Numbered from the stretch's first letter, positions 1 through 49,610 are shown. The stretch: DNA of 64,000 nucleotides from a bacterium (GCA_021816845.1 JAKAWT010000002.1:213329-277328); one strand, 5' to 3'. Notes: generated from the letters alone by a model not told the origin. Translations and numbers: made by a program.

Positions 1-1271
1 TATCATATGGAAATGCCACATTCTATGGTGATTTATCTCAAATTCCAAATATACCAAATAACCAAGTAGCAGATATGGTTGTTACAGCAAATGATCTAGG
101 ATATTATATTTTAACTAAGGATGGTGGTGTATACACATTTGGTAATGCAGTATTTAGAGGTTCAGTGTTTAATATATCATCTGCTCCAATAAAAAATGCT
201 GTATCTTTAAAATTGACACCTGATGGACTAGGTTATTATGTATTAACAGAAGATGGTGCGGTATATACTTTTGGAGACGCTGTTTTTCAAGGATCAATGT
301 ATAACATACCACAAGCACCAAATAAAGTTCCTGTATCTTTGAGTATCACGCCTAACAATCAAGGTTACTATATTCAAACGGAAGATGGAGGGGTATATAC
401 TTTTGGAAATGCTCAATTCATGGGATCTGTGTACAATATTCCCCAAGCACCCGATAAGAGTGCCATGGGTTTAAAACTAACACCAAATGGGCAAGGTTAT
501 TATATAGAAACTACTGATGGTGGTGTGTATACATTTGGGAATGCACAATTCTATGGTTCTATATATAACATCCCTAAGGCCCCAAGTAGTATAGTTTCTG
601 ATTTAGCTATAACACCAAATGGGCAAGGTTATTATGCTCTAACTGCTGATGGTGGTGTATATACATTTGGAAATGCTGAGTTTGAAGGATCAGATGCAGG
701 AGATGCAGCTGAAAATTCCCTTACTGTTAAGGGGTATATACAGCTTCCCTATAATACTTCTACAAATACTGGTGTAGTTGAAGGTGTAGTACAGAATAAT
801 TCTAATTCTACAATGAGTAACATATCTTTGACAGTTACTGGAGTTTTCGGTTCTCAAAAGGTTACTCCATTTTTCACTACTCTAAATCCTGATCAAAAGA
901 CTCCATTTATATTTTCATATCAAGGGACATATTCACCAACTTTAACATTTTCTGTTACTGGCACTCAGACAAATACATATACCAATCCTTTGAGTATAGG
1001 CAATATTCAAGTAACAAATAATAACAATTCAATAACAGTGTCTGGAGTTGTTACAAATAATTCTTCTATGACTATAAGTAATCCTAAGGTTTCAGTGATA
1101 TTTTATGATTCCAATGAAAATTTTGTATCAGTGTTATATCCAAGTAATTTAAGTAGTTCTATGTTACAACCTGGTGCATCCGCAACATTTAGTGCAACAC
1201 TTACAGGTAGCTATGTATCTCAGGTGTCTACAAATACGGATAACGCAGTGAAAGCATTAGTGACATATTAA
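1..1271 (+). CDS. 5'-partial secreted tandem-repeat protein (about 47-aa GYYxLTxDGGVYTFGNAxFxGS repeats x5+, then two copies of a Thr/Ser/Asn-rich beta-sandwich-like domain)
   Basis: ORF 75..1271. The same frame stays open back to base 3 and encodes another repeat copy (YGNATFYGDLSQIPNIPNN), so the gene starts left of the window. The repeat is paralogous to the C-terminus of the 17366..19177 ORF. A hairpin terminator follows. Confidence 0.6.
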   Translation, partial: SYGNATFYGDLSQIPNIPNNQVADMVVTANDLGYYILTKDGGVYTFGNAVFRGSVFNISSAPIKNAVSLKLTPDGLGYYVLTEDGAVYTFGDAVFQGSMYNIPQAPNKVPVSLSITPNNQGYYIQTEDGGVYTFGNAQFMGSVYNIPQAPDKSAMGLKLTPNGQGYYIETTDGGVYTFGNAQFYGSIYNIPKAPSSIVSDLAITPNGQGYYALTADGGVYTFGNAEFEGSDAGDAAENSLTVKGYIQLPYNTSTNTGVVEGVVQNNSNSTMSNISLTVTGVFGSQKVTPFFTTLNPDQKTPFIFSYQGTYSPTLTFSVTGTQTNTYTNPLSIGNIQVTNNNNSITVSGVVTNNSSMTISNPKVSVIFYDSNENFVSVLYPSNLSSSMLQPGASATFSATLTGSYVSQVSTNTDNAVKALVTY

Positions 1272-17365: not shown

Positions 17366-19177
17366 TTATTGTATAGCAGTAGGTGTAGCAACTCCTGCAA
17401 TACTACCTAAGAAATTTGCGTCTCCAAATGTATATACTCCTCCATCTGCTGTTACCATATAATAACCTAACCCATCTATTGATAATTTAAATGCAACTGG
17501 TGTTCTTACTGGTGGATTTGTTATATTAAACATTGATCCATAGAATTGAGCATCTCCAAACGTATATACCCCTCCATCTGCTGTTACCATATAATACCCA
17601 TTCCCATCATTTGTTACAGCAAATGCTACCGTAGTCTTTACTGGGGCATTTGGTATATTATATGTAGATCCATGAAATTGAGCATCTCCAAATGTATATA
17701 CTGCTCCATTCTGAGTTACTATGTAATATCCACCCCCATCTGGTGTTACTCCAAATGCCACAGGTGTTTTATCAGGTATGGCTGATTGGGGTATGTTAAA
17801 TAACGATCCATGGAATACTGCATCTCCAAATGTATATACACCCCCATCTGCAGTAAGAACATAATATCCATTACCATCTGGAGTGGCCACAATAGCCACG
17901 GGAGTCTTCACTGGAGCGTTTGGAATATTATATACTGATCCATAGAATTGAGCATTTCCAAATGTATATATTCCCCCATCTGAAGTTAGAATGTAGTACC
18001 CAGTATCAGTTGGATTTTCAGCAAATCCCACACCTTGCTTCGAAGGTACACCATTAGGAATATTACTCATATCTCCATAATTATTAGTTCCAAAATTGTA
18101 TAAATTACCGGTTAAAGATAATATTGAATAACCATCACGTAATTGAGATACATATACAGCATTAGAGTATGAATAAGATGTTCCAATTGTGTTGTTACAT
18201 TGGGCAGAATCATATGTTCCACCTCCTAATATATATGCAATATTATTATATGTAGCAACACTCTCACCTGAAATTCCAACAAATGCACAAGTAGAATTTG
18301 ATTGAGAATAATAATTCCAAGTTCCTAATGTTCCATTAGAATTTATATTAGAATAAACCATTCCAGTATTTCCTCCTATGCCATAAATATATCCATTAAT
18401 AATGAAATAATTTGATGGGTATATCCAATCTGAATAACTATTACTTGGATAAAAATGGTTTGTAGAGTTCCATACACCTAATGTACCATTACTCTGTATT
18501 TGCGAGTAATATATACTTAATTGTGAAGGGATAGTCCCTGTATAAATATAATATATATCCCCATTATATGCTAAAGACACTGCATCATAATCATCTACAG
18601 GAAGAGAAGTAGTAGAGTTCCATACACCTAATGTACCATTACTCTGTATTTGAGAATAATATACTGTATTTAGATAATTGTAATTTAAAGTTCCATTTAT
18701 TTGATTGTATCCACCAAGTTTATATATATATCCACCATAAGCCGCTATACTAGGATTATTAATATTTTGTGAAATAGATGATGTGGAATTCCAAATACTA
18801 AGTGTACCATTACTTTGTATTTGCGAGTAATATACTGTATTTCCTAATAAATATATATATCCATTAGACTCAACAGCTAAATTACTAACATTATTGGGTA
18901 TAGAAGTAGTAGAATTCCAATTTCCCAAAGTATGATTGCTTTGTATTCGGGCATAGTAAACTGAGTTTACACTATTTGGCATTCCATTTATTAATATATT
19001 CCCTCCTACTTCGTAAATATACCCATTATAAGTTATAGAAGAAGAATTACTAATTTCTTGAGGTAGAGAAGTTGTATTTTTCCAATTTAGATAATGAGCA
19101 TAGGATCCATGTGAAAAAATAAAACCATAAATTAGTAATAAAGCAAAAGAAAAAAATATATTTTTTATAAATTTCAC
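17366..19177 (-). CDS. secreted beta-propeller-like repeat protein (Kelch-like N-terminal repeats plus 5 C-terminal GYYxLTxDGGVYTFGNAQF repeats)
   Basis: Signal peptide; repeated YYSQIQSNGTLGxWNSTTS blades; C-terminal 47-aa repeats paralogous to the 1..1271 protein. Confidence 0.6.
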   Translation of the reverse strand: MKFIKNIFFSFALLLIYGFIFSHGSYAHYLNWKNTTSLPQEISNSSSITYNGYIYEVGGNILINGMPNSVNSVYYARIQSNHTLGNWNSTTSIPNNVSNLAVESNGYIYLLGNTVYYSQIQSNGTLSIWNSTSSISQNINNPSIAAYGGYIYKLGGYNQINGTLNYNYLNTVYYSQIQSNGTLGVWNSTTSLPVDDYDAVSLAYNGDIYYIYTGTIPSQLSIYYSQIQSNGTLGVWNSTNHFYPSNSYSDWIYPSNYFIINGYIYGIGGNTGMVYSNINSNGTLGTWNYYSQSNSTCAFVGISGESVATYNNIAYILGGGTYDSAQCNNTIGTSYSYSNAVYVSQLRDGYSILSLTGNLYNFGTNNYGDMSNIPNGVPSKQGVGFAENPTDTGYYILTSDGGIYTFGNAQFYGSVYNIPNAPVKTPVAIVATPDGNGYYVLTADGGVYTFGDAVFHGSLFNIPQSAIPDKTPVAFGVTPDGGGYYIVTQNGAVYTFGDAQFHGSTYNIPNAPVKTTVAFAVTNDGNGYYMVTADGGVYTFGDAQFYGSMFNITNPPVRTPVAFKLSIDGLGYYMVTADGGVYTFGDANFLGSIAGVATPTAIQ

Positions 19178-19350: not shown

Positions 19351-22104
19351 TTATACGAGTTTTCTTGAATTTAATCTCATATTTACCAACTGTAATAAAG
19401 AATTAATAACATCTCTTTTTATGCCTGATAAACCATAACATCTTAGTACTACGTCTTCAAATTCTATTCTATCTTTTTGAACTAATTCTTTAGTTATAGG
19501 AAAAACTTCTCTTTCTAATAATGGTTGAAATTTATTTAGTATTAAATTCTTTTGTCCATTTGATAAAAATAAAGGGTTTAAAATCATTAGATTCTTTTCT
19601 ATATTATCTTTATTCAAATCTAATACACTATCACCTCTTCCAAAACCTAAAGCTTCTATATAGAATATAGTCAAAAATGAATTCAATAAAGCATGGAGTA
19701 TATCTTTTTCAACATTTTGATGTTTCAGAGAAAATCCAATTAACCTTTGATTAATAAAAGAAGGATTATTCATTCTGGGAATAAAAATTCTTTCTGAAGG
19801 ATTCAAACTCATTGTAAAATCAGCTTTTTTATCCAAACTCATTGAATACCAAAATTTGTTACCTTTACCTAAAATCTGATTTAAAGGTTTTCCTTTTGTA
19901 TTGCTTAGATTTTCAAAAGATTTAATCCACTCTATAGCTCCGAAATGATTTAGTTTTTCTAAATCATTAATAGATAAAATACATGAAAATGCTCTTCCAT
20001 TAGCTTCTGTTGTAAGAGTCTTTACGGATTTTAAATTTTTTAAAAAAGGTTTGAGATATATTTTTTCTATATGATTATTTACTTCAGGATAAAATAATTT
20101 ATCCCATCCTCTTCTTTCTCCTCTATTAATGTCAAAAAATTGATTAACATTTATAACTTTATTCTCTAGTTTCATAACCCATGAGCAATCCGAGAATAAT
20201 CCATTACCACCAATACCATATTGACTTAAAATTTTTAAATCTTTATCTTTATAAGATTTCAAATATAATTCTTCATTATTTAAAAATTCATACTTATAAA
20301 TACTGCTAACAATATATTCAAAGTTATTTGATTTCTCTATATCGCCTTTTAATGTAACATATTTAGTCAAGTTTACATCTTTGTTTTTATTATTAATTTT
20401 TCTTAATATCATTATATTAGTTATAATTTTTACATCTTTAAACCATCTTCTAGAACCTGAAGTTATAACTATATCAATATGAAAGATTTTCCTTAAAGAA
20501 CTAATGAAATTCTTTCCCCATTTTGTTGATTGCCAAGAATTTGATATTATTAAACCTAAAACTCCATCTTTTGATAAGAATTTAACAAAATAAAAAGGTA
20601 AAAATGAATAGAAATCTCCTTTATTATTTAATTGTAAATCAATATTCAATTCTAATCTAATATATTCTCTTATTTCTTTTGCAATATTGGGATATAAAAT
20701 TGAATAAGTTTCTGATTTTATAAAAGGTAAATTTGAAACTACATAATCCATTAATGGCAAGCTAACTTTATAAATATCTCCAGAATAAGATTTATGAATA
20801 TTAATTAACATTCCCGCTTTGATATCAAGAACATCATCTTTGAATATATAAAATTTTTGTTCTTTATTCTCAGGATTAGCAATAGAAAAAGTAGCTAATT
20901 GTAAAGGAAATCCAAATTTATCACTTCCCCATGTAGATGAATAGATTTCTGATATCTTTAATTTATCATCTTCTTTTTTTAAATTAATAATCTCCCTTAG
21001 TATAGTTCCGGTACCACAACATGGGTCAATAACATTGGAATTTTTATTTCTTATAGTTAATTTAACTAAAAATTTTGATAAATATTGAGGTGTAGTAAAC
21101 TGACCTGCAATTTTTCTTTTACTTTTAATGACTAAATTATCTATCAATTCTTGAATAAAATCTTGAGTCATTTCTTGAATATTAGAATCTATTAATAAAT
21201 TATTGAATTCCAATATATTCTCCCAAAATTTATTAGGAATAATATCATCACCTAATTGTCTTACAAAAATATTCCAAAAATCTAATTTTTTAGATATATT
21301 TTCAAAGAATTCTAAAGAACACTTGATTTTATCAATAGTATTAAATTTATCTATTTCATTCGCGTTCATATTAAATTTCTTTATTAAATGTATGAATAGA
21401 AATTTGTTTATTACTGTTAAAAGATTTATTTTTGCAAGTACTATATATTTATCCTCTGTAGGGTATTCATACTGATTAGATTTCCACCAAATATTGATAT
21501 CATCACTAAATTCTGGATATTCATTACTTTTATCTTTAATATTATTAGAATAACTTTCTATATTGTTTTTTATTAAACTATCAATACCAAAAATAGATAT
21601 TGAATCAACTAGTGTTGTACTCTTAATACTTCCATTACTAAAATATATTACTAAATCTTCTAATATCTTATCTAATAAAATATAAATACTGTCTATTTGT
21701 TCAAAAACCTCTTCTCGTGTCTGAATTGTAGAAAGGTCTCTCCATTCTGATAAAATTTCTAAATCTTCATGATTATTAATAGTATATAACCTTGCATATT
21801 TAATATTCCATAATAAGAAACTCTTTAATCCTAAACTATCTGCTTTTTCTTTTGCATTTAAAATAAATTTTGAATCATTTATATCTGTATCAGGTAATTT
21901 GATTTCCCATCCTTGTAGATATGCTCCGGATGTTGAATCTGAATATAAAATTATGTCTGGGAAAAGTTTATTTTGATTTTGATTTGTAATTGTTATCTCA
22001 CCACCAGCTCTCTTTATAATTACATTCCTATTATTAGCCCAATTATTAATATATGAAATTAAATCAATACTTAAACTACGTTCATTTTCTTTAATATTTA
22101 TCAT
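19351..22104 (-). CDS. Type IIG restriction-modification enzyme (Eco57I/MmeI-like: N-terminal PD-ExK nuclease, central gamma-class N6-adenine methyltransferase, C-terminal TRD)
   Basis: N-terminal FPDIILYSD...GWEIK (D...ExK); MTase motif I DPCCGTGTIL followed by motif IV VVSNLPF (gamma order); 917 aa; 9 nt downstream of a separate MTase. Confidence 0.65.
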   Translation of the reverse strand: MINIKENERSLSIDLISYINNWANNRNVIIKRAGGEITITNQNQNKLFPDIILYSDSTSGAYLQGWEIKLPDTDINDSKFILNAKEKADSLGLKSFLLWNIKYARLYTINNHEDLEILSEWRDLSTIQTREEVFEQIDSIYILLDKILEDLVIYFSNGSIKSTTLVDSISIFGIDSLIKNNIESYSNNIKDKSNEYPEFSDDINIWWKSNQYEYPTEDKYIVLAKINLLTVINKFLFIHLIKKFNMNANEIDKFNTIDKIKCSLEFFENISKKLDFWNIFVRQLGDDIIPNKFWENILEFNNLLIDSNIQEMTQDFIQELIDNLVIKSKRKIAGQFTTPQYLSKFLVKLTIRNKNSNVIDPCCGTGTILREIINLKKEDDKLKISEIYSSTWGSDKFGFPLQLATFSIANPENKEQKFYIFKDDVLDIKAGMLINIHKSYSGDIYKVSLPLMDYVVSNLPFIKSETYSILYPNIAKEIREYIRLELNIDLQLNNKGDFYSFLPFYFVKFLSKDGVLGLIISNSWQSTKWGKNFISSLRKIFHIDIVITSGSRRWFKDVKIITNIMILRKINNKNKDVNLTKYVTLKGDIEKSNNFEYIVSSIYKYEFLNNEELYLKSYKDKDLKILSQYGIGGNGLFSDCSWVMKLENKVINVNQFFDINRGERRGWDKLFYPEVNNHIEKIYLKPFLKNLKSVKTLTTEANGRAFSCILSINDLEKLNHFGAIEWIKSFENLSNTKGKPLNQILGKGNKFWYSMSLDKKADFTMSLNPSERIFIPRMNNPSFINQRLIGFSLKHQNVEKDILHALLNSFLTIFYIEALGFGRGDSVLDLNKDNIEKNLMILNPLFLSNGQKNLILNKFQPLLEREVFPITKELVQKDRIEFEDVVLRCYGLSGIKRDVINSLLQLVNMRLNSRKLV

Positions 22105-22112
22105 TCTTAATT

Positions 22113-22919
22113 TTATAAATCAAAAGAATTAAAAAATCCTAGGCTTTTTTTTGCAGCTTCAATCCTTTTGATAGATATATCTATTAAATTTACTTTATTT
22201 TTTTTATGCAAAAGAGTATCTTCATTTTTTTCTATTCCTATAAAGTTTCTATTCTCTAATACAGCACTAACAAGAAAACTTCCACTACCAGAAGTATTAT
22301 CTAAAACAGTATCTCCTTCATTTGTATATGTTCTTATAATATATCTTCCTAATTCCACTGGTTTTTGAGTCGGATGATATACTTTTCCTTCACTTTCAGC
22401 TGTTTTAAAATATATAACATCGCTAGGATATCTTTGTCCATCACTTTGAATTTGTATAGAATTAAAATCCCCGTAACTCCCTGTTAATTGGTCTTTTCTA
22501 ACTCCTTTATCATATGGAACTCCTTCATTCATTTGAGGATTATAAATAGGTTGATTTTTATAGAATATGCAAATATCTTCATGTTTTCTTAACGGCTGTT
22601 TTTTTGCATTTAAAAAGTTTGTTGATTTTGATTTAACCCAAATCAGTTTATATTTAAACAGTTTTTTATTACTCATAATTAATTCTGCACTAAATGCTCC
22701 TTGAGAAGAAAGTGCTATAACTCCATTATCTTTAATTATCCGTTCATATTGTTCCCATAGTTTATCCAAAGGAATAACACTATCCCATATATTCTGTGTT
22801 GTACCATAAGGCAAATCACATAATATTAAATCAATAGACTTGCTATCAATGAAAGGTAAAACCTTTAAACAGTCATTTTCTATAACTTTATTTAAAAATT
22901 CTGTATTAAATTTAGACAT
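22113..22919 (-). CDS. DNA methyltransferase, beta-class (N6-adenine or N4-cytosine), companion to the Type IIG enzyme
   Basis: Motif IV LILCDLPYG preceding motif I DNTSGSGSF (beta-class order); 268 aa. Confidence 0.7.
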   Translation of the reverse strand: MSKFNTEFLNKVIENDCLKVLPFIDSKSIDLILCDLPYGTTQNIWDSVIPLDKLWEQYERIIKDNGVIALSSQGAFSAELIMSNKKLFKYKLIWVKSKSTNFLNAKKQPLRKHEDICIFYKNQPIYNPQMNEGVPYDKGVRKDQLTGSYGDFNSIQIQSDGQRYPSDVIYFKTAESEGKVYHPTQKPVELGRYIIRTYTNEGDTVLDNTSGSGSFLVSAVLENRNFIGIEKNEDTLLHKKNKVNLIDISIKRIEAAKKSLGFFNSFDL

Positions 22920-27864: not shown

Positions 27865-28392
27865 TTAATCAATAGTCTTTATTATACAATTTTTTAAGTA
27901 AATTGTAGAACCAGATACTTTTTCTATTATTCCCCTAACCATAAGGTGGTCATAACGATTCATTCTATTCAAAAAATTATACATATTCTTTTGTACTGAA
28001 AAACATACATAACAACTAAACTTGTCTAAAGATACAGTAAAAACATTTGACCTATCATTATCAAAAGTATCATCATTTAAACTAAACAATTTGACTTCCC
28101 ATGTAATTTTATAATCTATATATCCACTAGCAATAATTTTTTGGGCTGATAAAGGATGATTATCAATATCATTTATAATATCCCTAGGAGATTTTTTAGA
28201 TAAAGTAAATTTTTTAAATTTTTCTTTATTTGTAGTTATACTTCCATTGTTTTCAATTTGATTTTGATGCTGTATTTTATTATCTTTACTTCTATCTTTA
28301 CCTATGCCAAAACCATAATACAAGATTAAGCCTGCAATTACAGTACCTCCTATTCCTATAACCCATGGATTATTCATTAATATATTTATCAT
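27865..28392 (-). CDS. membrane-anchored hypothetical protein
   Basis: Real start placed at MINILMNNPWV (28392). The upstream part of ORF 27865..28707 is an artefact that reads through tRNA-Gln/Gly/Phe. Confidence 0.45.
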   Translation of the reverse strand: MINILMNNPWVIGIGGTVIAGLILYYGFGIGKDRSKDNKIQHQNQIENNGSITTNKEKFKKFTLSKKSPRDIINDIDNHPLSAQKIIASGYIDYKITWEVKLFSLNDDTFDNDRSNVFTVSLDKFSCYVCFSVQKNMYNFLNRMNRYDHLMVRGIIEKVSGSTIYLKNCIIKTID

Positions 28393-28413
28393 AGTAATAA
28401 AAATAATAAAGCA

Positions 28414-28484
28414 CTGGGATGCAGGGATTCGAACCCCAAACTTCAGGACCAAAACCTGGCGTGATGCCATTTCACCACATCCCA
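28414..28484 (-). tRNA. tRNA-Gln(TTG)
   Basis: Acceptor TGGGATG/CATCCCA, anticodon loop TTTTGGT, T-loop GGTTCGAATCC; no encoded CCA. Confidence 0.75.
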
Positions 28485-28493
28485 AAATAAATA

Positions 28494-28566
28494 AGCGGAA
28501 GACGGGGTTCAAACCCGCGACCTTATCCTTGGCAAGGATACGCTCTATCAACTGAGCTACTTCCGC
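28494..28566 (-). tRNA. tRNA-Gly(GCC)
   Basis: Acceptor GCGGAAG/CTTCCGC, anticodon stem TATCC/GGATA with loop TTGCCAA, T-loop GGTTTGAACCC. Confidence 0.8.
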
Positions 28567-28571
28567 AGATA

Positions 28572-28644
28572 TGCCACAGGTGGGGCTCGGACCCACGACA
28601 CAAGGCTCTTCAGGCCTCTGCTCTACCAGCTGAGCTACCGTGGC
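28572..28644 (-). tRNA. tRNA-Phe(GAA)
   Basis: Acceptor GCCACGG/CTGTGGC, D-arm AGCTCAGCTGGTAGAGC, anticodon loop CTGAAGA. Confidence 0.8.
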
Positions 28645-28709
28645 ATAAAACATTAAGAGTATACCAAATTTTTTTAATATTGAAAATTTATTTAATGGAG
28701 AAAACACAT

Positions 28710-28782
28710 TGGGTGGTACAGGGATCGGACCTGTGACATCTACGGTGTAAACGTAGCGCTCTACCAGCTGAGCTAACCACCC
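28710..28782 (-). tRNA. tRNA-Val(TAC)
   Basis: Acceptor GGGTGGT/ACCACCC, anticodon stem CTACG/CGTAG with loop TTTACAC. Confidence 0.8.
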
Positions 28783-28797
28783 AAATTAAATCTACAA

Positions 28798-28886
28798 TGG
28801 GCAGAAGAGGACTTGAACCTCCATGCCACTAAATAAGGGGCACAACCACCTCAAGGTTGCGTGTCTACCGATTCCACCATCTGCCC
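28798..28886 (-). tRNA. tRNA-Leu(GAG)
   Basis: Acceptor GGGCAGA/TCTGCCC, long variable arm, anticodon stem CAACC/GGTTG with loop TTGAGGT. Confidence 0.75.
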
Positions 28887-28947
28887 AAAATCTATATTAA
28901 AGACACAGGCATATTATATTTAAAAAAAACAAATTTTGCAATGAATT

Positions 28948-29029
28948 TGCCAGAGAGAGGACTTGAACCTCCAAATCTTTCGATACAGCGTTCTGAACAC
29001 TGCGTGTATACCAATTTCACCACTCTGGC
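28948..29029 (-). tRNA. tRNA-Leu(CAG)
   Basis: Acceptor GCCAGAG/CTCTGGC, long variable arm, anticodon stem CAGTG/CGCTG with loop TTCAGAA. Confidence 0.7.
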
Positions 29030-29030
29030 A

Positions 29031-32834: not shown

Positions 32835-32927
32835 TAATACATAAAAAGGCTTAATTCTCTAATTTTTTACATGTTTTAGCAATTATATAGGGTAACTTGA
32901 CAAAAATTCTCCATATCTTTAGAATGG

Positions 32928-35729
32928 ATGTATCCTATGAATAATAATTTAAAGGTTATATATCAATTTAATGAGGTTAGTGGTAGAGATTATATGAAGC
33001 TTGGTGATAAATCTATGAGTATAGGTGCTATATATAATCTATCTATACCTACTCCCCCTGGTTTTATTATTTCAGCTGATGCATATAACTTTTTCATAGA
33101 TATAACTAATTTAAAAGAACAGATAAAGGATCTTTTGGAAAAAACAGATTTTGATGATGAGAATTCTATACAAGAGGTTTCATCTAGGATTGAAGATAGC
33201 ATAATGAAATCAGAAATACCTCCTCAAGCTGAAAGAGAAATTGCTAGAGCTTATTCAAAATTATCTGGATTCTCTGATAGTACAGTTTCAGTAAGATCTT
33301 CATATATCTTTGGAGAGAATGTAGAAATTCCAGATAATATAATTCAGAATACATTTATAAATATAAAAGGTTTAGCAGAACTGACTTTAGCAATAAAAGC
33401 CTGTTGGGCAAGTTTATTTGAACCTGAGGTTTTAAAATATAGGAAAGAAAATAATGTTGATATTGTAAAAACAAGTACATCAATTCTCATACAAAAGATG
33501 GTTCAGGTAGAGGCTTCAGGACTAATGTTTACAGTATCACCTATTGATAGGGATATACATACACTTTCTATACAAGCAATACTTGGTACTATAGATGGAA
33601 TAAAATCTGGAGAGATTACTCCAGACAATTATCATATAGACAAAAAAACTTTAAAGTTTAAGGAGAAAGAAATTTCCAAACAGGAACATATGTTTGTAAA
33701 GAATCATAAATCAAAGAGTAATACTGATGAAAGTATGAAAGTTAAGATTGCATCCAAGTGGCAAGAGAATCAAAAGATAGATAATAAAAATATAATTACG
33801 TTAGCAAGATATGGATTATTATTGGAAGATATGTATAAAAGACCACAAGCTGTAGAGTGGTCTATAGAAAAGGGAAAACTGTGGGTATTAAAATCTCTAA
33901 ATATGCCTAGCTTTGATGAAAATGACCTTTTAAATATGGAGGATAACACAGAAGATAAAAGTATCAAAGCTGAAGAGGAAACAGAGAAAGTATCTCCAGA
34001 GGTAGCACCCCAAGAGGTATCACCTCAAGAAGAAATACCTCTAAAGGAAGTGGCTGATGATAACAACCCTCCTGGAAGTGTAACAGCAGCAATAAGATAT
34101 GATACTAATCTTCTTCTTACAGGATCACCTGCTTATCCTGGTATAGTCTATGGGACAGTTAAAGTAGTTAAAGATCTTAGTGAACAGGATACAGTTGAAA
34201 ATGGGGACATCATTGTCTGTGAGAATATCAATGATGATTGGAGAGAAGTATTAAGAAAAGTTAATGGTCTTATTATAGATAAGGGTAGTATAGATTCTAA
34301 AGCAGTACAAATTGCAAAAGAAATGGATATCCCTTGCATAGTGGGTGCAGAAATAGGCACAAAGGTACTTGTAAGTGGAGAGAAAATATTTTTTGATGGA
34401 TCTGTAGGAAGAATATATAAAGATAATAGTATAGGATCAACTAATAAAACTGATACTATTGATTATAAAATTGAAGACGTATCACCTATTAAAGAAAGTG
34501 AGGGAACTTCAGAGAAACCTCAAGAAACAATGCCTACAGAGGAAGTAGATAAAAAGGTTGAAAATTTAGAGGATGAGAAAACAACAGTAGATACCAAGGA
34601 ACAGATTTCTGAACCAGTCATAGAATCAGAGGTTCCAGAACCAGTTCCAGAACAAAGTCCAGAACCAGTGCCAGAACAAGAGGCTCCTGAAACAATCATA
34701 AATAATGGTGTAGAGCAAGCTCCTGAAACTGCCCCGGAGCTTGCCCAAGAACCAGAGGTTCCAGAACCAGTTCCAGAACAAAAGGTAGTTATAGATAATG
34801 ATAGCCACAAAAAGTCAAAAAATGAGAAGAGTATTTTAACCGCAACAAAGGTATATACAACAATATTTGATAGCAAACTATCAAAGGAGATACCAAAAAC
34901 AAACTTAGATGGAGTTGTAGTTTATGCAGACGATTTAATTCTCGATCTAAAGGTACATCCTAAACAGATACTATCTATACAAAAAAATAAAGAATATATA
35001 GAGGATATATCAAAAAAGGTTATAGAAATATGTGATAGTGTAACCAACTCGAGGAATGTTATATATACCCTATCTAATTTTACATCCAATGAATTTTTAC
35101 AACTAGAAGGAGGGGTTCAATTTGAAATACAAGAAGAGAATCCTTTAATAGGTTACAGAGGAACATTAAGAAATATAAAAGAGATAGAAGTTCTAAATAT
35201 GGAACTTGAAATTATAAAAAATGTGAGGAATAAACATGGTTATAAAAACCTTTGGATTATGATTCCATATGTAAGGACTCCAGAAGAATTAGTAGAGATG
35301 AAGAAAATTATATCATCTCAAAATTTAAAACGCTCATCAACATTTAAGATATTTATTGATCTACAAGTACCTTCCAACATTATTGCAATAGATGATCTTC
35401 TAGATATTGGTGTTGATGGGATTAACATAAACCTTGATGAACTATCCCAAATGGTATTGGGAATAGATTATAAAAACCCTAAGATACAAAAGGAAGTTAT
35501 ATCGACAAATAGTATAATGAGAAAAGCAATAGAGTCAATTTTGAAAAGCTCAAATGAACATAAAATATTAAACTCTATATCAGGAAGGAATATATCTGAT
35601 GATCAAGAATTTTTAGAATTCCTTATTAAGCATGGGATGAATATCATAAATGCTGAAACTGATAAAGTATATAGTGTCAAAGAAAAGCTTGCACAAATAG
35701 AAAGAGAATATATACTAAAGAAATCTTAG
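32928..35729 (+). CDS. PEP synthase/pyruvate phosphate dikinase-like protein with degenerate phospho-His site and Pro/Glu-rich repeat insertion
   Basis: N-terminal PPDK_N-like ATP-grasp (IPTPPGFIISADAY), PEP-utilizer mobile domain (GSIDSKAVQIAKEMDIPCIVG, His position occupied by Ser), C-terminal PEP-utilizers TIM barrel (LWIMIPYVRTPEEL, IGVDGININLDELSQ); EPVPEQ repeats at 34550-34800. Start may be the Met at 32994. Confidence 0.6.
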   Translation: MYPMNNNLKVIYQFNEVSGRDYMKLGDKSMSIGAIYNLSIPTPPGFIISADAYNFFIDITNLKEQIKDLLEKTDFDDENSIQEVSSRIEDSIMKSEIPPQAEREIARAYSKLSGFSDSTVSVRSSYIFGENVEIPDNIIQNTFINIKGLAELTLAIKACWASLFEPEVLKYRKENNVDIVKTSTSILIQKMVQVEASGLMFTVSPIDRDIHTLSIQAILGTIDGIKSGEITPDNYHIDKKTLKFKEKEISKQEHMFVKNHKSKSNTDESMKVKIASKWQENQKIDNKNIITLARYGLLLEDMYKRPQAVEWSIEKGKLWVLKSLNMPSFDENDLLNMEDNTEDKSIKAEEETEKVSPEVAPQEVSPQEEIPLKEVADDNNPPGSVTAAIRYDTNLLLTGSPAYPGIVYGTVKVVKDLSEQDTVENGDIIVCENINDDWREVLRKVNGLIIDKGSIDSKAVQIAKEMDIPCIVGAEIGTKVLVSGEKIFFDGSVGRIYKDNSIGSTNKTDTIDYKIEDVSPIKESEGTSEKPQETMPTEEVDKKVENLEDEKTTVDTKEQISEPVIESEVPEPVPEQSPEPVPEQEAPETIINNGVEQAPETAPELAQEPEVPEPVPEQKVVIDNDSHKKSKNEKSILTATKVYTTIFDSKLSKEIPKTNLDGVVVYADDLILDLKVHPKQILSIQKNKEYIEDISKKVIEICDSVTNSRNVIYTLSNFTSNEFLQLEGGVQFEIQEENPLIGYRGTLRNIKEIEVLNMELEIIKNVRNKHGYKNLWIMIPYVRTPEELVEMKKIISSQNLKRSSTFKIFIDLQVPSNIIAIDDLLDIGVDGININLDELSQMVLGIDYKNPKIQKEVISTNSIMRKAIESILKSSNEHKILNSISGRNISDDQEFLEFLIKHGMNIINAETDKVYSVKEKLAQIEREYILKKS
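34600..34800 (+). repeat. in-frame tandem nucleotide repeat (gaaccagttccagaacaa-type units) encoding an (E/S)PEPVPEQ low-complexity linker
   Basis: Visible direct repeats ccagaaccagttccagaacaa...ccagaaccagtgccagaacaa...ccagaaccagttccagaacaa; they generate spurious antisense ORFs 34520..34876 and 34626..34808. Confidence 0.7.
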
Positions 35730-35758
35730 ACTGAGTAATATTATTAGTAAGGAAAATT

Positions 35759-37282
35759 ATGACTCCACAAAATACAGTGCATAGAGATACTCTGTATCGG
35801 GATACCGTTCTTGTCATACTAGATGGATTTGGAATATCAGAGAAAAGGAAAGGTAATGCAGTAATATCAGCTAACACCCCATTTTTAGATTCTATATATC
35901 AAAAGAGTTACTACTCAGAACTTGAGGCTTCTGGAGAATATGTTGGACTTGAAAAGAATGTTATGGGAAATAGTGAAGTTGGTCACTTAAACATAGGGGC
36001 AGGTAGGATTGTAAAACAATACTCTTTAATGATAGATGAGGATATAAAGAATAACAATTTTTTTGAGAACAAAGAAATAGATAAAGCTATACACAATGTA
36101 GAGACAAACAGGAGTAATATGCATATAATGGGACTTTTATCAGATGGCAAAGTACATTCTGACATCTCAAATTTTTATGCAATATTAAAGTATTTAAAAC
36201 AAAATGGTATAGATAAAGTTTATGTTCATATATTTTCAGATGGAAGGGATGCTGGTTATGAAAGTGTAAAAAGTTATATAAAGAAACTAGAGTCACACTC
36301 ACCAAAAAATTATATACTATCCTCCATCGTGGGCAGATATTATGCTATGGATAGAGATAATAGATGGGATAGAACAGAGAAAGCATTTAGATTACTAAGA
36401 TCACACTTTGGAATTGAGGTATCAAACATAAATGATGCTATAGATGAATCTTATAAAGAAGAGATATCTGATGAGTTTATAAAACCATACTATGTTAGAG
36501 GTACTCCAGAGGTTAAAGATAATGATTCTATGATATTCCTAAATTTTAGAGAAGACAGAGCAAGACAAATATCCAAACTTTTTATACAAAATACAAAAGT
36601 ATATTTTTTATCTATGATTCAATATGATAACTATGTTAAAAGATATATATACCCTAGTGTAAAAGTAAAAGACTCTTTATCTGAAGTAATATCCACAAAT
36701 AATCTCAAACAATTAAAGATTGCAGAAACAGAAAAATATGCCCATATAACATATTTTCTAAATGGAGGATATGAAAAAGCTTTTAGAGGAGAAGATAGAA
36801 TACTAGTACCATCACTTAAGGTTGCAACATATGATTTGGCTCCTCAAATGAGAACGCCGGAGATAACAGAAAAACTTATCTTAAGTTTAGAAAAAACTAA
36901 ATACTCTTTTGTTGCTATAAATTTTGCAGCAGCGGATATGGTTGGCCATACAGGAAATTTCAAAGCTGTGGTTGAAGCTATTGAGACTATAGATAGAAAT
37001 TTAAAACTTATATATGACGAATGTGTCAAAAAAAAGGATCTCAATTTAATCATTACTGCAGATCATGGAAATGCTGAAGAGATGATAAAGGACGAAGAAA
37101 TTTATAAGGAACATACTACAAATAAAGTACCATTCATATTCACCAATCAATCTATATCAAGAGGAAAAAGAATCAATGATGGGATACTTTCTGATATTGC
37201 ACCTACAATATTATATCTTCTAGGATTAGAAAAACCCAAAACAATGACAGGATCAAATCTTCTTGGTAAAATATATACATAA
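35759..37282 (+). CDS. gpmI: 2,3-bisphosphoglycerate-independent phosphoglycerate mutase
   Basis: MGNSEVGHLNIGAGR, DGRD, ADHGN motifs of iPGM; 507 aa. Confidence 0.85.
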   Translation: MTPQNTVHRDTLYRDTVLVILDGFGISEKRKGNAVISANTPFLDSIYQKSYYSELEASGEYVGLEKNVMGNSEVGHLNIGAGRIVKQYSLMIDEDIKNNNFFENKEIDKAIHNVETNRSNMHIMGLLSDGKVHSDISNFYAILKYLKQNGIDKVYVHIFSDGRDAGYESVKSYIKKLESHSPKNYILSSIVGRYYAMDRDNRWDRTEKAFRLLRSHFGIEVSNINDAIDESYKEEISDEFIKPYYVRGTPEVKDNDSMIFLNFREDRARQISKLFIQNTKVYFLSMIQYDNYVKRYIYPSVKVKDSLSEVISTNNLKQLKIAETEKYAHITYFLNGGYEKAFRGEDRILVPSLKVATYDLAPQMRTPEITEKLILSLEKTKYSFVAINFAAADMVGHTGNFKAVVEAIETIDRNLKLIYDECVKKKDLNLIITADHGNAEEMIKDEEIYKEHTTNKVPFIFTNQSISRGKRINDGILSDIAPTILYLLGLEKPKTMTGSNLLGKIYT

Positions 37283-38265
37283 TGCATGAATATAGAATTT
37301 CAAATAAGGAAGAGATAGAAGAATTACAGAAAGAATTTAAATCCAATTTTCTCCAGACTACATATTGGGCTGAATTTAAAAATTGGGATACTCACTACCT
37401 AGTTTTTGAAGACAATTCTAAAGTATATGGATATTGTGTTTTATTAATAGAGAAAAAATACTTTTTTAAATTAGCATATGTGCCACGAGGACCAATTTTA
37501 AATGATTATTCAAAGATTCTAGATTCTAAGTTTAAAAGTGCTATATCAAGTATTGAGGATTTTGCAAAAACACAACACGTGTCACTTTTAAAAATAGAAC
37601 CAGACCACTCTGATATTAACCATCAAGATGGCAACCATCCAGATGGCAACATCAACTACTCTGATATATTCAAAGGGTATATCAAGGTTAATGATTTCAT
37701 ACAACCAGTACAAACTGCTGTATTAGATGTAGGAGATAGAGATTTTATGATAAAAAATATATCTTCAAAATATAGAGGAAGAATAAGGAATAAATTTAAT
37801 TTAGAATTAAAAACTATTGATGATATAGACAAATTTTTTAAAGTTTATTCAGACACAGCAAATATAAAACACTTTAAACAAAGAAATATAGAATATTTTA
37901 AGAATATGAAATTTTATTTTAAAGATCATATAAAAATCTTTGGGGTCTATTACAATAATATCCTAATAGCAGCATCTTTTAATATATTATGGCAAGATAC
38001 ATTGACTTATCTTTATTCTGGATCAGATAAAAAGTATAACAACATGTATCCAGGATATTTTCTTGTTTTTGAGTCATCATTATCTATGAAAAATAATGGT
38101 ATAAAAATTACAGACTTATGGGGAGTTAGCGATGATAATACTAAATGGCAAGGATTTTCAGAATTCAAGAAAAATATCGGAGGTAGAGTTATTGATTTCC
38201 CAGGAAGTTTTGATTTACCATTAAACAAATTATATTATTCTATATATAAATTGATCAAAAGGTAG
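37282..38265 (+). CDS. FemAB-family peptidoglycan bridge-forming aminoacyltransferase
   Basis: FLQTTYWAEFK, YVPRGP, LTYLYSGS, MYPGYFLVFES, DLWGVSDD...W.GFS.FK motifs; paralogous to the convergent neighbour. Confidence 0.7.
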   Translation: MHEYRISNKEEIEELQKEFKSNFLQTTYWAEFKNWDTHYLVFEDNSKVYGYCVLLIEKKYFFKLAYVPRGPILNDYSKILDSKFKSAISSIEDFAKTQHVSLLKIEPDHSDINHQDGNHPDGNINYSDIFKGYIKVNDFIQPVQTAVLDVGDRDFMIKNISSKYRGRIRNKFNLELKTIDDIDKFFKVYSDTANIKHFKQRNIEYFKNMKFYFKDHIKIFGVYYNNILIAASFNILWQDTLTYLYSGSDKKYNNMYPGYFLVFESSLSMKNNGIKITDLWGVSDDNTKWQGFSEFKKNIGGRVIDFPGSFDLPLNKLYYSIYKLIKR

Positions 38266-38271
38266 AAGAAT

Positions 38272-39270
38272 CTATTTTAATGAGATTTCAAAGCTACCAG
38301 GGAAATTTACTACTTTAGATCCCATATTCCTTTTAAAATCGGAGAATCCTTTCCATGTTGGGTTGTCATCACTTACACCCCATAGATCCATCACTGAAGC
38401 TCCTCTATCTCTCATTAATAAGGCAGATTCAAATACCAGGAAATATCCAGGATACATATTATTTTTTTCCCTGATAGACCCAGCATAAAGGTATGTTAAA
38501 GTATGCCCATGTAAGATATTAAAAGAAGCTGCAATAAGTCTACCTTCATGATATACACCAAATATTTTTGTTTTATCTTTTAGGAATCTTTGCATATCTT
38601 CAAAATATGTTATATCTCTTTTTGTAAAATGCTGTCTTTCTGAAGTACTTTGATATACTCTAAAAAAATTATCCACAGTTTCATTTTCTTTGAGTTCAAG
38701 ATTAAACTTATTCTTGACTCTACCTCTATACTTAGAATCTATCTGACTTACCATCTCACTCCTAGATCCTATTTTAAGTAATGCAACTTTAGTAGGTTGC
38801 ACACCAACATCATGATCTACTTTTTTATATTTTCTAAAAATATTTTGATAATCAATATCATCGGAATATTCATCCATAAAATCTGGTTCTATTTTTAAAG
38901 ATGATACATGTTGTGTTTTTGCAAAGTTCTCGATAGCATCTATTGCAGTTCCAAATTGTAAAGGATTTCTCAGTACAGGACCACGAGGAACATATAGTTC
39001 TTTTTTAAATAAGGATTTCCTTTGTGTTAATAATATAGCATAACCAGATACAGACATACCATCTTTAAAAACCATATAATGAGGTATTACACCTTCTTTT
39101 TGTGTTTTAAATTCTGCCCACTCTGTAGTTTGAAGAAAACTAGATTGAAATTCTTCTTGTAGTTTTTTTATTTCTCTCTTATCTGAAAATTGATATTCAG
39201 GAATATTTACAGCTTCAGACATAGAGTTTAATCCAGCTCTAAATTGTTGATATTCAATTTCAGGTTGCAT
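38272..39270 (-). CDS. FemAB-family peptidoglycan bridge-forming aminoacyltransferase (second paralog)
   Basis: Same motif set (FLQTTEWAEFK, YVPRGP, LTYLYAGS, MYPGYFLVFES, DLWGVSDDNPTWKGFSDFK). Confidence 0.7.
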   Translation of the reverse strand: MQPEIEYQQFRAGLNSMSEAVNIPEYQFSDKREIKKLQEEFQSSFLQTTEWAEFKTQKEGVIPHYMVFKDGMSVSGYAILLTQRKSLFKKELYVPRGPVLRNPLQFGTAIDAIENFAKTQHVSSLKIEPDFMDEYSDDIDYQNIFRKYKKVDHDVGVQPTKVALLKIGSRSEMVSQIDSKYRGRVKNKFNLELKENETVDNFFRVYQSTSERQHFTKRDITYFEDMQRFLKDKTKIFGVYHEGRLIAASFNILHGHTLTYLYAGSIREKNNMYPGYFLVFESALLMRDRGASVMDLWGVSDDNPTWKGFSDFKRNMGSKVVNFPGSFEISLK

Positions 39271-46047: not shown

Positions 46048-47238
46048 ATGAGTACTACTCTAAAAAATCATATATATACGAATAATAAGTCTTTAATATT
46101 GACAGTAAATGCTGGCTCATCTAGTCTCAAATTTGATTTATTTTCCATTAATCCGATTGTAAAAGTTACTAGTGGTGTTATAGATAAAATTGGACAAGAT
46201 AAATCTTTATTTGCCATTGACAATTTATCCAAGGAAGTATCTTTAAATACATATAATGATGCAATTAATCTATTTATAGAATGGTTGGGAAATAATACAC
46301 AAAATGTAATTGCAATAGGCCACCGTATAGTACATGGAGGACCTAAATATTTTGAACCTTGTCTAGCTACCAGAGATATTATTGATGATTTGGAAAAATT
46401 TATACCATTTGATACTGAACATCTACCTAATGAATTATTAATCCTTAAAAAAATTCAATCATTGTTCCATGATATCCCCAATATATTATGTTTTGATACA
46501 TCATTTTACAAAGACTTACCAATTGAATCAAAAATGTTGCCTATCCCAAGGCATTATTTTGAAGATGGCTTAAGGCGTTATGGATTCCACGGATTATCTT
46601 ACCAATTTGTTTTTCAGAAATTACAACAAATTTATGGAGAAAAAATATTATCTAGTAGATTAATTATTGCACACATTGGTAGTGGCGTAAGCTTAAGTGC
46701 AATAAGAGAAGGAAAACCAATAGATACAACAATGGGGTTTACTCCAACAGGTGGTGTACCTATGGGGACTAGATCTGGAGATATTGATCCAGGAATAATA
46801 TCATATATAGAAAATACGAAGAATCTAAATATCAACCAGATTGATCATATGTTTAATTTTGAATCAGGACTTCTAGGTATATCCGAAACAACATCTGATA
46901 TGAAATCACTTTTAGACAATGAATCTACAGATAAAAGAATATCTGATGCTATAAATATTTTTTGTTACAATATAAAAAAAACAATTGGAGGATTTATTGC
47001 AATACTTGGTGGTATTGATAAAATTGTATTTACTGGTGGTATTGGTGAAAATTCCCCAGAGATACGTAGAAGAATATGTCAAAACCTAGATTTTATGGGG
47101 ATTGTAATAGATCAAAATAATAACAATAATAATAAAGATATTATTTCTAAAAAAACGAGTAAAGTAGAAATCAGGGTTATTAATACAGATGAAGCTCAAA
47201 TTATTGTTCAAAATGTAATAAATATTTTAAATATATGA
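46048..47238 (+). CDS. ackA: acetate kinase
   Basis: [52 protein letters not shown] motifs. Confidence 0.9.
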
Positions 47239-49610
47239 TAATTAATAAAAAACCTTTAAACAAGAAAACATTACAAAAAATGGATAGATATTGGAGAGCT
47301 ACGAATTATCTTTCAGTTGGACAAATCTATCTTTGTGATAATCCATTACTACGTAAACCTTTAGAACTTTCCCATATAAAAAAATTGCTTTTAGGACATT
47401 GGGGTACTACACCTGGACAAAATTTTATATATGTTCATTTAAATCGTATTATAAAAAAACATAATCTCAATATGATATATATCTCAGGACCAGGACATGG
47501 AGGACCAGCTTTGATTAGTAACGTTTATCTTGAAGGTACATATAGTGAAGTTTACCCTAGTATCACTCAAGATGAAGCTGGGCTGAAAAAATTATTCAAG
47601 CAATTTTCATTTCCAGGAGGTATCTCAAGCCATGTTTCCCCTCAAACGCCAGGATCAATACATGAAGGAGGAGAATTAGGATATTCTTTGTCTCATGCAT
47701 TTGGTGCGGTATTTGATAACCCAGATTTAATCGCAGCATGCGTTGTAGGAGATGGAGAAGCAGAAACTGGACCTCTTGCTACGGCTTGGCATTCAAATAA
47801 ATTTTTAAATCCTTTAACTGATGGTGTGGTCTTACCAATTTTACATCTTAATGGATATAAGATTTCAAATCCCACAGTTTTATCTCGTATTACTCATAAA
47901 GAACTAGAGCAATTGTTTATAGGATATGGGTGGAAACCATATTTTGTAGAAGGATATGATCCTCAATTGATGCATCAAAAAATGGCCCAAATACTAGACA
48001 AATGTATAAAAGATATACACGATATAAAACATAAAGCACATTCTAAAAAAAATATGGAAAGACCTCGTTTCCCCATGATTATTCTGCGATCACCAAAGGG
48101 TTGGACAGGACCTAAAATATTAGATGGAAAACCTATTGAAAATTCATTCCGTTCTCATCAAGTTCCAATATTAATAACGGATAAAACACCTCCAGAAAAT
48201 ATTAAGGAGTTGGAAAATTGGCTTAAAAGTTATAAACCAGAAGAACTCTTTGATGAAAAAGGAAAATTAAAATCAGATTTAGCCGATCTAGCCCCTATTG
48301 GTAATCACAGAATGGGTGCCAATCCTCATACTAATGGAGGATATCTACTACAAGCACTAAATATGCCAGATTTCAAGGATTATGCTATCAAAATAGACAA
48401 ACCGGCAACTATAGCTACCAGTAATATGGAGGTATTAGGACCTTTCCTACGTGACATTATTGTTAAAAATGAGCATAATTTCCGTATCTTTAGTCCTGAT
48501 GAAACTATTTCAAATAAGCTTGAAGCAGTATTTGAAGCAACTAATCGTCAATGGGACGCCAACATTAAACCTAGCGATGAATTCCTATCAAATAAAGGTC
48601 GAGTATTTGATTCAATGCTTAGTGAACATCAATGTGAAGGATGGCTGGAGGGATATTTATTAACTGGACGTCATGGTTTATTCCATAGTTATGAAGCATT
48701 TATTAGAATTATAGACTCTATGCTTACACAACACGCAAAATGGCTCAAGATGAGTAATGAGTTACCTTGGAGACAAAAAATTGCTTCCTTAAATTATTTA
48801 TTAACCTCACACGCTTGGAGACAAGACCATAATGGATTTACACATCAAGATCCAGGATTTATTGACCATATAATTAATAAAAAGAGTCAAACAGTACGTA
48901 TTTACCTGCCTCCTGATGCAAATTGCCTATTATCAACTATGGACCATTGTCTCAGAAGCTCTAATTATATTAATCTAATAATCAGTGGTAAACATGATGA
49001 GGCTCTGCAGTTTCTTAATATAGATGAAGCTATTGCTCATTGTAATCAAGGTATTGGTATTTGGCAATGGGCAAGTAATGATAGTGAGACTGGCCCAGAC
49101 GTAGTTATGGCATGTGCGGGTGATGTTCCAACAGTTGAGACACTCGCTGCAGTATCCATTTTAAGATCATATCTTAAAGATTTGAAAATACGAGTGGTGA
49201 ACATTGTAGATTTGATGAAATTAGAACCTGAAAGTGAAGGTCCACACGGGCTAAGTGATACTGATTATGACTCTATATTTACAAAAGACAAGAATATAAT
49301 TTTTGCTTTCCACGGATATCCTTGGTTAATACATAGACTCACATATCGCCGTAACAATCGTAATTTGCATGTACGTGGTTATAAAGAAGAAGGAACAATA
49401 ACTACGGCATTTGACATGGCTGTATTAAACAATATTGATAGGTTTCATCTTGTTATAGATACAATTGATCGTTTACCTCAAATTGGGACAAAAGGTGATT
49501 ATTTAAAACAACTCATGGAAGAAAAATTAATACAACATAGACAATTTATAAATGAAAATGGAATAGATATGCCTGAGATACGTAATTGGAGATGGGAAAG
49601 AGAGGATTAA
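47235..49610 (+). CDS. xfp: xylulose-5-phosphate/fructose-6-phosphate phosphoketolase
   Basis: [11 protein letters not shown], ThDP-binding [12 protein letters not shown], 791 aa; 4-nt overlap with ackA (operon). Confidence 0.9.

Follow-up and report, generated by a model that had tools for sequence, protein, structure and literature searches.

Is a protein with all three domains of phosphoenolpyruvate (PEP) synthase necessarily a PEP synthase? The question matters for the candidate phyla radiation (CPR, or Patescibacteria), whose metabolism is inferred almost wholly from the presence or absence of matches to hidden Markov models. It is raised here by a gene at positions 32928-35729 of a 64,000-nt stretch of bacterial DNA (GCA_021816845.1, JAKAWT010000002.1:213329-277328; this whole stretch is called the window below). 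The window has about 30% G+C, and the loci nearest to it come from metagenome-assembled genomes (MAGs) labelled "bacterium" or "Patescibacteria group bacterium". The gene encodes a homologue of PEP synthase (PEPS, PpsA), which we refer to as the query. It is probably a selected, non-catalytic derivative of PEPS, that is, a pseudoenzyme. This reading is carried by homology to an enzyme family, by replacement of the residues essential in that family, by purifying selection on the gene, and by the release of the former catalytic positions from their constraint.

Domains and fold

The Pfam domains PPDK_N (PF01326; residues 25-323, E 4.7e-64), PEP-utilizers (PF00391; residues 424-494, E 4.1e-14) and PEP-utilizers_C (PF02896; residues 704-925, E 8.8e-29) follow one another in the order of the PEP-utilising superfamily, each above its gathering score. 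Thus all three domains are recognisable, as a preliminary description of the locus had noted. In an AlphaFold2 model built on a 34-sequence alignment, with a mean predicted local distance difference test score (pLDDT) of 77.5, they form three confident domains with blocks at about 85-96, and the score drops below 50 in two stretches, residues 339-392 and 502-632. By Foldseek the domain folds superpose on those of PEPS, pyruvate phosphate dikinase (PPDK) and rifampin phosphotransferase (RPH) with template modelling (TM) scores of 0.88-0.91; the C-domain fits 8a8e_A with a TM score of 0.91 and a root-mean-square deviation of 1.9 Å, and the ATP-grasp domain fits the RPH structure 5hv6 with 0.91.

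The closest solved structures by phmmer are archaeal and bacterial PEP synthases, namely those of Pyrococcus furiosus (8a8e, 4.8e-101), Staphylothermus marinus (9dae, 2.8e-93) and Neisseria meningitidis (2ols, 2.4e-68), which have the order ATP-grasp, swivel, TIM barrel in common with the query. The query nevertheless scores under both NCBIfam cut-offs for PEP synthase equivalogs, with 482.8 against 598 bits for NF005057 and 445.1 against 739.75 bits for TIGR01418. With PPDK (Clostridium symbiosum 1kbl and 1dik, maize 1vbg) it shares the superfamily, the swivelling architecture and the fold (Foldseek E 1e-26 to 1e-32), but the sequence similarity is weak (E about 1e-4) and the nucleotide-binding domain of PPDK is larger. 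Enzyme I of the phosphotransferase system (PTS) has an N-terminal HPr-binding/His domain (PEP-utilisers_N) followed by a PEP-binding barrel, and no ATP-grasp domain. The query is not of this type, as it has an ATP-grasp domain and its C-domain resembles that of Enzyme I only weakly (E 1e-13 to 1e-16).

Loss of the phospho-carrier histidine and of both substrate sites

Can a protein with these folds still make PEP? In every canonical homologue examined the central domain carries a phospho-carrier His in the motif G-G-x-T-[SAC]-H-A-A-I, where the query reads G-S-I-D-S-K-A-V-Q. The equivalent of the His is Lys458 (34299-34301), and that of the regulatory Thr is Asp456. This register agrees in three independent alignments, by phmmer to PDB 8a8e, by MAFFT, and by hmmalign to a profile of 25 canonical enzymes; phmmer pairs GSIDSKAV of the query with GGRTSHAA of P. 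furiosus PPSA, within segments that run from LIIDK to PCIVG in the former and from IVTDE to PCVVG in the latter. A shifted alignment that would rescue a carrier His is ruled out, as all three methods lead to Lys458 and no His lies inside the motif. The preliminary description was thus right that the His is gone, but it named Ser as the replacement, and this Ser457 is the ordinary residue of the [SAC] position. It had foreseen that a profile alignment might move its register; the shift is real and amounts to one residue, yet it brings no His to the carrier site. Asp456 was also considered as a phosphomimetic of the regulatory Thr, and this was dropped as a general feature, with Asn, Lys or Glu at that position in other subclades.

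The loss is not confined to the carrier motif. We compared 22 positions, aligned by hmmalign to the canonical profile, of which ten belong to the ATP/Mg site, two to the His motif and ten to the PEP/pyruvate/Mg site. The part played by each of these positions is known from PPDK, Enzyme I and PpsA. The string KREDQQDEQR / TH / RRDKRENDRC is found nearly without exception in about 50 canonical homologues, where the query has KRGEIQAEKL / DK / YTNTRQDEYS. In the ATP/Mg site, which takes in the Lys of GGK, the Arg of VRSS, ATAED, FAGQQ, the D-x-E of QDIEWA and the Q-x-R of IVQxRP, four residues survive (K28, R123, Q140 and E310) and six are replaced. Here GGKGANLGE has become GDKSMSIGA, SSATAED..FAGQQ has become SSYIFGEN..NIIQ, and IVQ[ST]RP has become VLKSLN; the alteration of the N-terminal GGK, now G-D-K, had been reported before. 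Neither residue of the His motif is kept. The PEP/pyruvate/Mg site retains R744 (in GYRG) and has nine replaced positions, Y666, T714, N717, T719, Q813, D837, E838, Y848 and S885. Among them Ser885 (35580-35582) stands for the Cys proton donor (I-C-G-Q), Gln813 for the Mg-ligand Glu, and D-E (D837, E838) for the N-D pair. The query positions that presumably correspond to His455, Cys831, Arg561, Glu745 and Asn768/Asp769 of C. symbiosum PPDK are all replaced. A preprint on P. furiosus PPSA names Cys756 and His442 of that enzyme.

Since the carrier His, the proton-donating Cys, the ligands of Mg and most residues that bind the substrates have been replaced, the protein is predicted to be unable to act as a PEP synthase. 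The preliminary description, which did not contain the loss of most ATP-site and PEP-site residues, had suggested a non-catalytic or neofunctionalised homologue rather than a working PEP synthase; the non-working part of that statement now stands more strongly than it was made.

Orthologues and selection

Is the gene then a relic? A word-index search gave one identical sequence (P0001, 100%), two at 81% identity (P0002, P0003) and, over BLASTP segments spanning 32-100% of the query, six more at 42-62% (P0004-P0009), and an exhaustive profile search added a further orthologue, P0081. In at least nine orthologues, down to 42% identity, the ORF (open reading frame) is intact and lies in the same position 5' of an intact gene for cofactor-independent phosphoglycerate mutase (iPGM), and uninterrupted ORFs of 830-961 aa are found in at least ten independent assemblies (NCBI, ENA, JGI). 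The survey of orthologues for the His substitution, which the preliminary description had called for, found the His in none of them, with a replacement that differs by subclade: Lys in the subclade of the query, Tyr in P0004-P0006, Arg in P0007, and Ile in P0009 and P0081. The same catalytic-site losses, with other replacement residues, occur in P0002-P0009 and P0081, while K28, R123 and Q140 are invariant throughout the clade. P0008 (688 aa; L088:3970-6036 and L089:4461-6527) lacks the whole mobile domain and both long linkers, and this deletion is real, since it recurs between the same genes in two independent assemblies.

The ratio of nonsynonymous to synonymous substitution rates (dN/dS) was calculated by the Nei-Gojobori method against two relatives of 81-87% identity (loci L084 and L085), at dS values of 0.5-1.2, which are high but not saturated. 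It is 0.05-0.07 for the ATP-grasp domain, 0.04 for the mobile domain and 0.023 for the TIM barrel, the most constrained part of the protein, and rises to 0.14-0.32 in linker 1 and 0.39-0.59 in linker 2. For neighbouring genes on the same contigs the values are 0.08-0.10 (iPGM), 0.03-0.06 (ParA) and 0.20-0.22 (the second of two FemAB-family genes). Purifying selection on the folded domains matches in strength that on the housekeeping neighbours. From the low dN/dS of the domains and the intact, syntenic orthologues it follows that this is a maintained gene and not a relic.

Selection on the domains does not extend to the former catalytic positions in any special way. Among six subclade representatives the pairwise identity is 0.46 at the 22 positions against 0.52 over all columns, whereas canonical enzymes show 0.96 against 0.48 in the same comparison. 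The former catalytic positions are freed from special constraint and are conserved no more than average positions. No new conserved constellation of residues has taken their place, the replaced positions having 34% pairwise identity between subclades.

There is a further question of concern, whether the protein is a neofunctionalised enzyme or a ligand sensor, which would bind a nucleotide or phosphometabolite through K28/R123/Q140/E310 or R744 and use it for a new reaction or for metabolite sensing. The invariance of K28, R123 and Q140, the retention of R744 and the very strong constraint on the domains would all fit such a role. That third domain and acceptor can change within the family is seen from RPH and PigC/RedH; their ATP-grasp domain is like that of the query (5hv6 above, and NCBIfam matches of 1e-55 to 1e-57 over residues 10-343). 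What is more, the PEPS-like proteins P0010 (locus L087) and that of locus L006 retain the His motif (GGNTSH and GGVTSH) and the ATP-grasp site (10/10 in P0010) while their PEP/pyruvate site is dead, with 6/10 residues at most and no Cys, a combination that hints at an intermediate stage in which another acceptor was used. However, RPH and PigC/RedH keep the His and the ATP site and have another C-terminal domain, while the query has lost the His, has a degenerate ATP site, and has the PEPS-type barrel (PEP-utilizers_C) as its third domain, and so does not belong with them. In the query clade there is no conserved nucleophile at the carrier position (Lys, Tyr, Arg, Ile, or deleted), neither the Mg nor the adenine-side residues (ATAED, and Q and R in IVQxRP) are retained, the replaced positions vary between subclades, and one lineage has deleted the mobile domain altogether. 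Thus an enzyme or sensor is rather unlikely, and new catalysis, which the preliminary description had allowed for, is disfavoured by the differences between subclades.

Expanded acidic linkers

In swivelling enzymes of this kind the linkers normally let the central domain move between two active sites. Measured between conserved anchors, those of the query are 68 and 140 aa long; the medians in canonical enzymes (n=32) are 20.5 (range 16-60) and 24 (range 16-32). The query linkers are thus 3-6 times longer than the short linkers of PEP synthase, and both are predicted to be disordered. Linker 1 has a net charge of -14. Linker 2 contains 27 Glu, 17 Pro, 8 Asp and no Arg, with a net charge of about -23, and the unit PEPVPEQ occurs in it three times, at residues 570, 578 and 612. 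Its DNA holds two 35-nt repeat copies (34622-34656 and 34748-34782, 97% identical) and 12/24-nt tandem units at 34632-34681. The preliminary description had placed an acidic PEPVPEQ region, encoded by direct repeats, at the junction of mobile and TIM-barrel domains; the insertion and its repeats are as described, but its size is about 131 aa (502-632) instead of roughly 90 aa. The second expanded acidic linker (339-392), in which a 15-nt tandem repeat at 33998-34030 encodes EVAPQEVSPQE, had been missed. Linker 2 differs in length among close relatives, with 134-158 aa in the subclade of the query against 24-47 aa in P0004-P0007. On the opposite strand of the Pro/Glu repeat region there is an ORF of 118 aa rich in Ser, Gly and Thr (34520-34876, minus strand), almost certainly a by-product of the low-complexity repeat of the coding strand.

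Could the linkers themselves be the functional part? The protein would then be a structural polyanion, with the acidic Pro/Glu-rich tethers as spacers or as binders of cations or surfaces and the domains as an oligomeric core. Both linkers are expanded and strongly acidic in the full-length members of the clade and in the intermediates (94/69 and 42/104 aa in P0010 and L006), and their predicted disorder would suit such a function. But the sequence, the length and even which linker is expanded vary between subclades, the linker dN/dS of 0.14-0.59 and the almost linkerless P0008 fit relaxed constraint better, and a role at the surface is made unlikely by the lack of a signal peptide in the sequence. 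We regard this explanation as very improbable.

Genomic context and probable stepwise loss of ppsA

The features of the locus are collected in Table 1. The ORF is uninterrupted from the ATG at 32928, but an alternative ATG at 32937 gives a protein of 930 aa with the N-terminus MNNNLK found in all orthologues, and this is the probable true start. A scan of the region for promoters and terminators gave no more sites in total than shuffled sequences did, so the 11/12 promoter match just 5' of the gene, though the best sigma-70-like one in the region, is a hint only. Together with the start at 32937 the predicted promoter would give a nearly leaderless mRNA.

Table 1. Coordinates of the PEPS-like gene, its parts and adjoining features in the window
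Feature	Residues	Position	Strand	Basis and remarks
Sigma-70-like promoter match		32897..32925	+	TTGACA-17-TAGAAT, 11/12; consensus scan, just 5' of gene
PEPS-like ORF	933 aa from ATG 32928	32928..35729	+	uninterrupted
ATP-grasp (PPDK_N) domain	~6-338	32943..33941	+	Pfam; pLDDT ~90; fold kept
Linker 1, acidic, predicted disordered	339-392	33942..34103	+	pLDDT <50
Central "mobile" (PEP-utilizers) domain	~393-501	34104..34430	+	Pfam; pLDDT ~85; fold kept
Former phospho-His motif, replacing G-G-x-T-[SAC]-H-A	G453-S-I-D456-S-K458-A	34284..34304	+	alignments
Linker 2, acidic Pro/Glu-rich insertion, predicted disordered	502-632 (131 aa)	34431..34823	+	pLDDT <50
Direct/tandem repeats encoding PEPVPEQ units		34603..34786	+	DNA repeat analysis
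TIM-barrel (PEP-utilizers_C) domain	~633-933	34824..35726	+	Pfam; fold kept
iPGM (cofactor-independent phosphoglycerate mutase)		35759..37282	+	begins 29 nt past pseudoenzyme stop; AAGGA ribosome-binding site

The gene order in the clade is SBP_bac_5(-), SecG(-), Transglut_core(+), PEPS-like(+), iPGM(+), FemAB(+), ParB/ParA, signal peptidase and PBP1, and the block Transglut_core, PEPS-like, iPGM, FemAB is syntenic in all clade loci. A scan of the spacer found no terminator-like site between the PEPS-like gene and the iPGM gene; given this, the 29-nt gap and the AAGGA site, the two are probably co-transcribed. The iPGM, which scores 406 bits to that of S. aureus and keeps all motifs including the catalytic Ser of GNSEVGH, looks fully functional.

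Where does the PEPS-like gene come from? Locus L043 (Woesebacteria) has a PEPS in which all 22 residues are kept, directly after it enolase (L043:12255-13526) and then iPGM, and enolase also follows PEPS in L015, L027, L035, L037, L039, L040 and L049. The cluster ppsA-eno-gpmI is likely the ancestral one of canonical Patescibacteria, and from its position, which is that of canonical Patescibacteria ppsA beside the lower-glycolysis genes, the query gene is taken as the positional orthologue of that ppsA. The intermediates share the query's neighbourhood, with Transglut_core upstream and enolase and/or iPGM downstream. L006 (MAG CRAIB_MAG31), with the His present and the PEP site dead, has an intact enolase (L006:7575-8897) and iPGM after its PEPS-like gene. 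In L087, where the ATP site and the His are intact and the PEP site has 6/10 residues without the Cys, the enolase (L087:9997-11248) is broken into six out-of-frame pieces. In the query clade enolase is missing from between ppsA and gpmI, where only the spacer 35730-35758 is left, and it was not found in the 64-kb window or in 274 kb of clade loci. Neither was a pyruvate kinase, a PPDK domain or a canonical PEPS found elsewhere in the window. In a neighbour-joining tree the clade is recovered in 100/100 bootstraps, groups with L006 and P0010 in 72/100, and adjoins the canonical Patescibacteria enzymes, with the reservation that such trees may suffer long-branch attraction among degenerate sequences. 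The simplest reading is a stepwise death of ppsA in place, in which the PEP site would have been the first to go.

Three degenerate active sites, slippage-prone linker repeats and a lost enolase neighbour might also suggest a decaying pseudogene or a sequencing or assembly artefact, but this is rejected as exceedingly unlikely, since the ORFs are intact in independent assemblies, the domain dN/dS of 0.02-0.07 is as low as or below that of the adjacent iPGM, ParB and ParA, AlphaFold2 gives three confident native-like folds, the orthologues are 42-87% identical and not recent copies of one sequence, and a truly decaying gene looks different, as the L087 enolase does.

Degenerate PEPS-like proteins outside the clade

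Is the clade an isolated case? We searched 1.84 billion cluster representatives with a profile built from the clade and classed the best 150 matches by the 22 positions; since such a listing is biased toward query-like sequences, the numbers are counts of clusters and not frequencies. Only four representatives of the tight clade appeared, and after them many other PEPS-like proteins. Among the best 150, the His is replaced and both sites are degenerate in 57, the His is kept with both sites degenerate in 21, the central motif is absent in 9, the ATP site alone is degenerate in 14 and the PEP site alone in 9, and 28 are canonical. The other degenerate proteins (P0137, P0048, P0083, P0064/P0183) are like the query in having mostly three Pfam domains and in having lost the His and/or Cys and many site residues; they are unlike it in belonging to separate lineages with other replacement residues, most of them about 750 aa long without linker expansion. 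One group with the motif GRKGLSLF (P0064, P0065, P0138, P0173, P0174, P0183, P0186, P0192, P0200, P0206, P0208, P0210 and P0219) has 830-1040 aa and the central motif GGLTS[DE]xAIxCRE, in which Asp or Glu replaces the His; in P0064 and P0065, the only two members with precomputed Pfam domains, PEP-utilizers_C is not recognisable. Degenerate and canonical forms are intermixed in a tree of these proteins, and a single origin of all degenerate lineages is not claimed here, because long-branch effects prevent the counting of origins.

P0137 (His replaced by Gln, with 3/10 and 1/10 site residues; L091:6001-8241) overlaps by 8 nt an apparently intact enolase (L091:8234-9496), which suggests translational coupling, and P0048 is also followed by enolase. 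Loss of enolase is thus not a precondition for the death of PEPS, and the operon link between a dead PEPS and lower glycolysis recurs.

Possible function of the protein

What would a PEPS derivative without catalysis do? A regulatory or scaffold role, as put forward in the preliminary description, is what we infer: the protein would carry out no phosphate transfer and would work by binding. The most likely mechanism would be a homodimer formed through the TIM-barrel domain, proposed because members of the family dimerise through this domain and because constraint is highest in it here. The preprint on P. furiosus PPSA gives it as the dimerisation domain of PPSA and PPDK. In such a dimer, long polyanionic tethers would carry the ATP-grasp-like and mobile-like domains. 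An archaeal-type 24-mer core was considered as well and is unsupported, as Met799, which coordinates iron in the P. furiosus PPSA 24-mer according to the preprint, aligns to Ile in the query. The protein might be a structural or regulatory partner in lower glycolysis, which is suggested by the probable co-transcription with iPGM and by the dead copies in operon with enolase elsewhere; this particular partnership is held as doubtful. Catalytic death probably came after the lineage had ceased to use the PEP node; the enolase gene found between ppsA and gpmI in its relatives is missing here.

Some points weigh against a non-catalytic PEPS derivative, or against parts of this picture. Its inactivity is deduced from residues whose roles were worked out in PPDK, Enzyme I and PpsA. 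K28 and R123, which are the pair of phosphate-binding residues in the ATP-grasp site, are invariant in the clade, and a nucleotide or phosphorylated ligand may be bound there. The partnership with iPGM or enolase is read from a gene order which is ancestral and may persist by inertia. Finally, P0008 does without the mobile domain in two assemblies although this domain is strongly constrained in the subclade of the query, so that the essential part may be the ATP-grasp and TIM domains alone.

Other features of the window

The carbon metabolism encoded near the gene can be seen in part. An acetate kinase gene (46048-47238) and a full-length phosphoketolase gene (XFP_N/XFP/XFP_C; 47235-49610) lie on the plus strand with a 4-nt overlap, and they point to a phosphoketolase-to-acetate route by which this organism makes ATP; with it, the PEP-to-pyruvate end of glycolysis could be dispensable. 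A cupin-type glucose-6-phosphate isomerase and an aldehyde dehydrogenase are also encoded.

After iPGM come two convergent genes of the FemAB family (peptidoglycan interpeptide bridge), at 37282-38265 (+) and 38272-39270 (-), the second of which, with a dN/dS of about 0.20, evolves at roughly double the rate of its neighbours. An N6_Mtase-domain protein of 917 aa (19351-22104, -) adjoins an N4/N6 DNA methylase of 268 aa (22113-22919, -), and the pair is probably a restriction-modification or related defence module. A cluster of six tRNA genes (Gln, Gly, Phe, Val, Leu, Leu) occupies 28413-29030 (-), and an ORF of 280 aa at 27865-28707, which covers four of them, is probably spurious. An ORF of 858 aa (57594-60170, -) has no Pfam match at E <= 1e-5. 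Weak matches to RCC1-like repeats are present at 75-1271 (+) and 17366-19177 (-), the second far under the gathering score.

Implications

Pseudoenzymes as a class are well known. Full-text literature searches found no described pseudoenzyme of PEPS or PPDK. The query passes all three Pfam thresholds though it is predicted to be unable to make PEP, and a relative of 81% identity is annotated by JGI as "phosphoenolpyruvate synthase/pyruvate phosphate dikinase". With dozens of clusters at 50% identity showing degenerate sites, the PEP-pyruvate node may be over-called in many CPR-like genomes. The clade and its relatives also offer a natural series for the death of a three-site swivelling enzyme, in which the PEP site would be lost first and the ATP site and the His afterwards, the linkers expand, and one lineage deletes the central domain, while the folds stay under strong selection throughout. 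This points to a non-catalytic function of a protein of central metabolism.

How far does this extend? According to Jaffe et al. 2020 (PMC7304191), only about one third of CPR genomes have a pyruvate kinase, and PEPS was proposed there as an enzyme that could interconvert PEP and pyruvate instead. It is a tentative possibility that the dead PEPS homologues form a large unrecognised class of pseudoenzymes in Patescibacteria (CPR) and other small-genome organisms, kept for a conserved non-catalytic role in lower glycolysis, such as scaffolding or regulating enolase or iPGM, with whose genes they still share an operon. If this is true, reconstructions from genomes that take the presence of PEPS as a substitute for the often-missing pyruvate kinase would be systematically wrong for these lineages.

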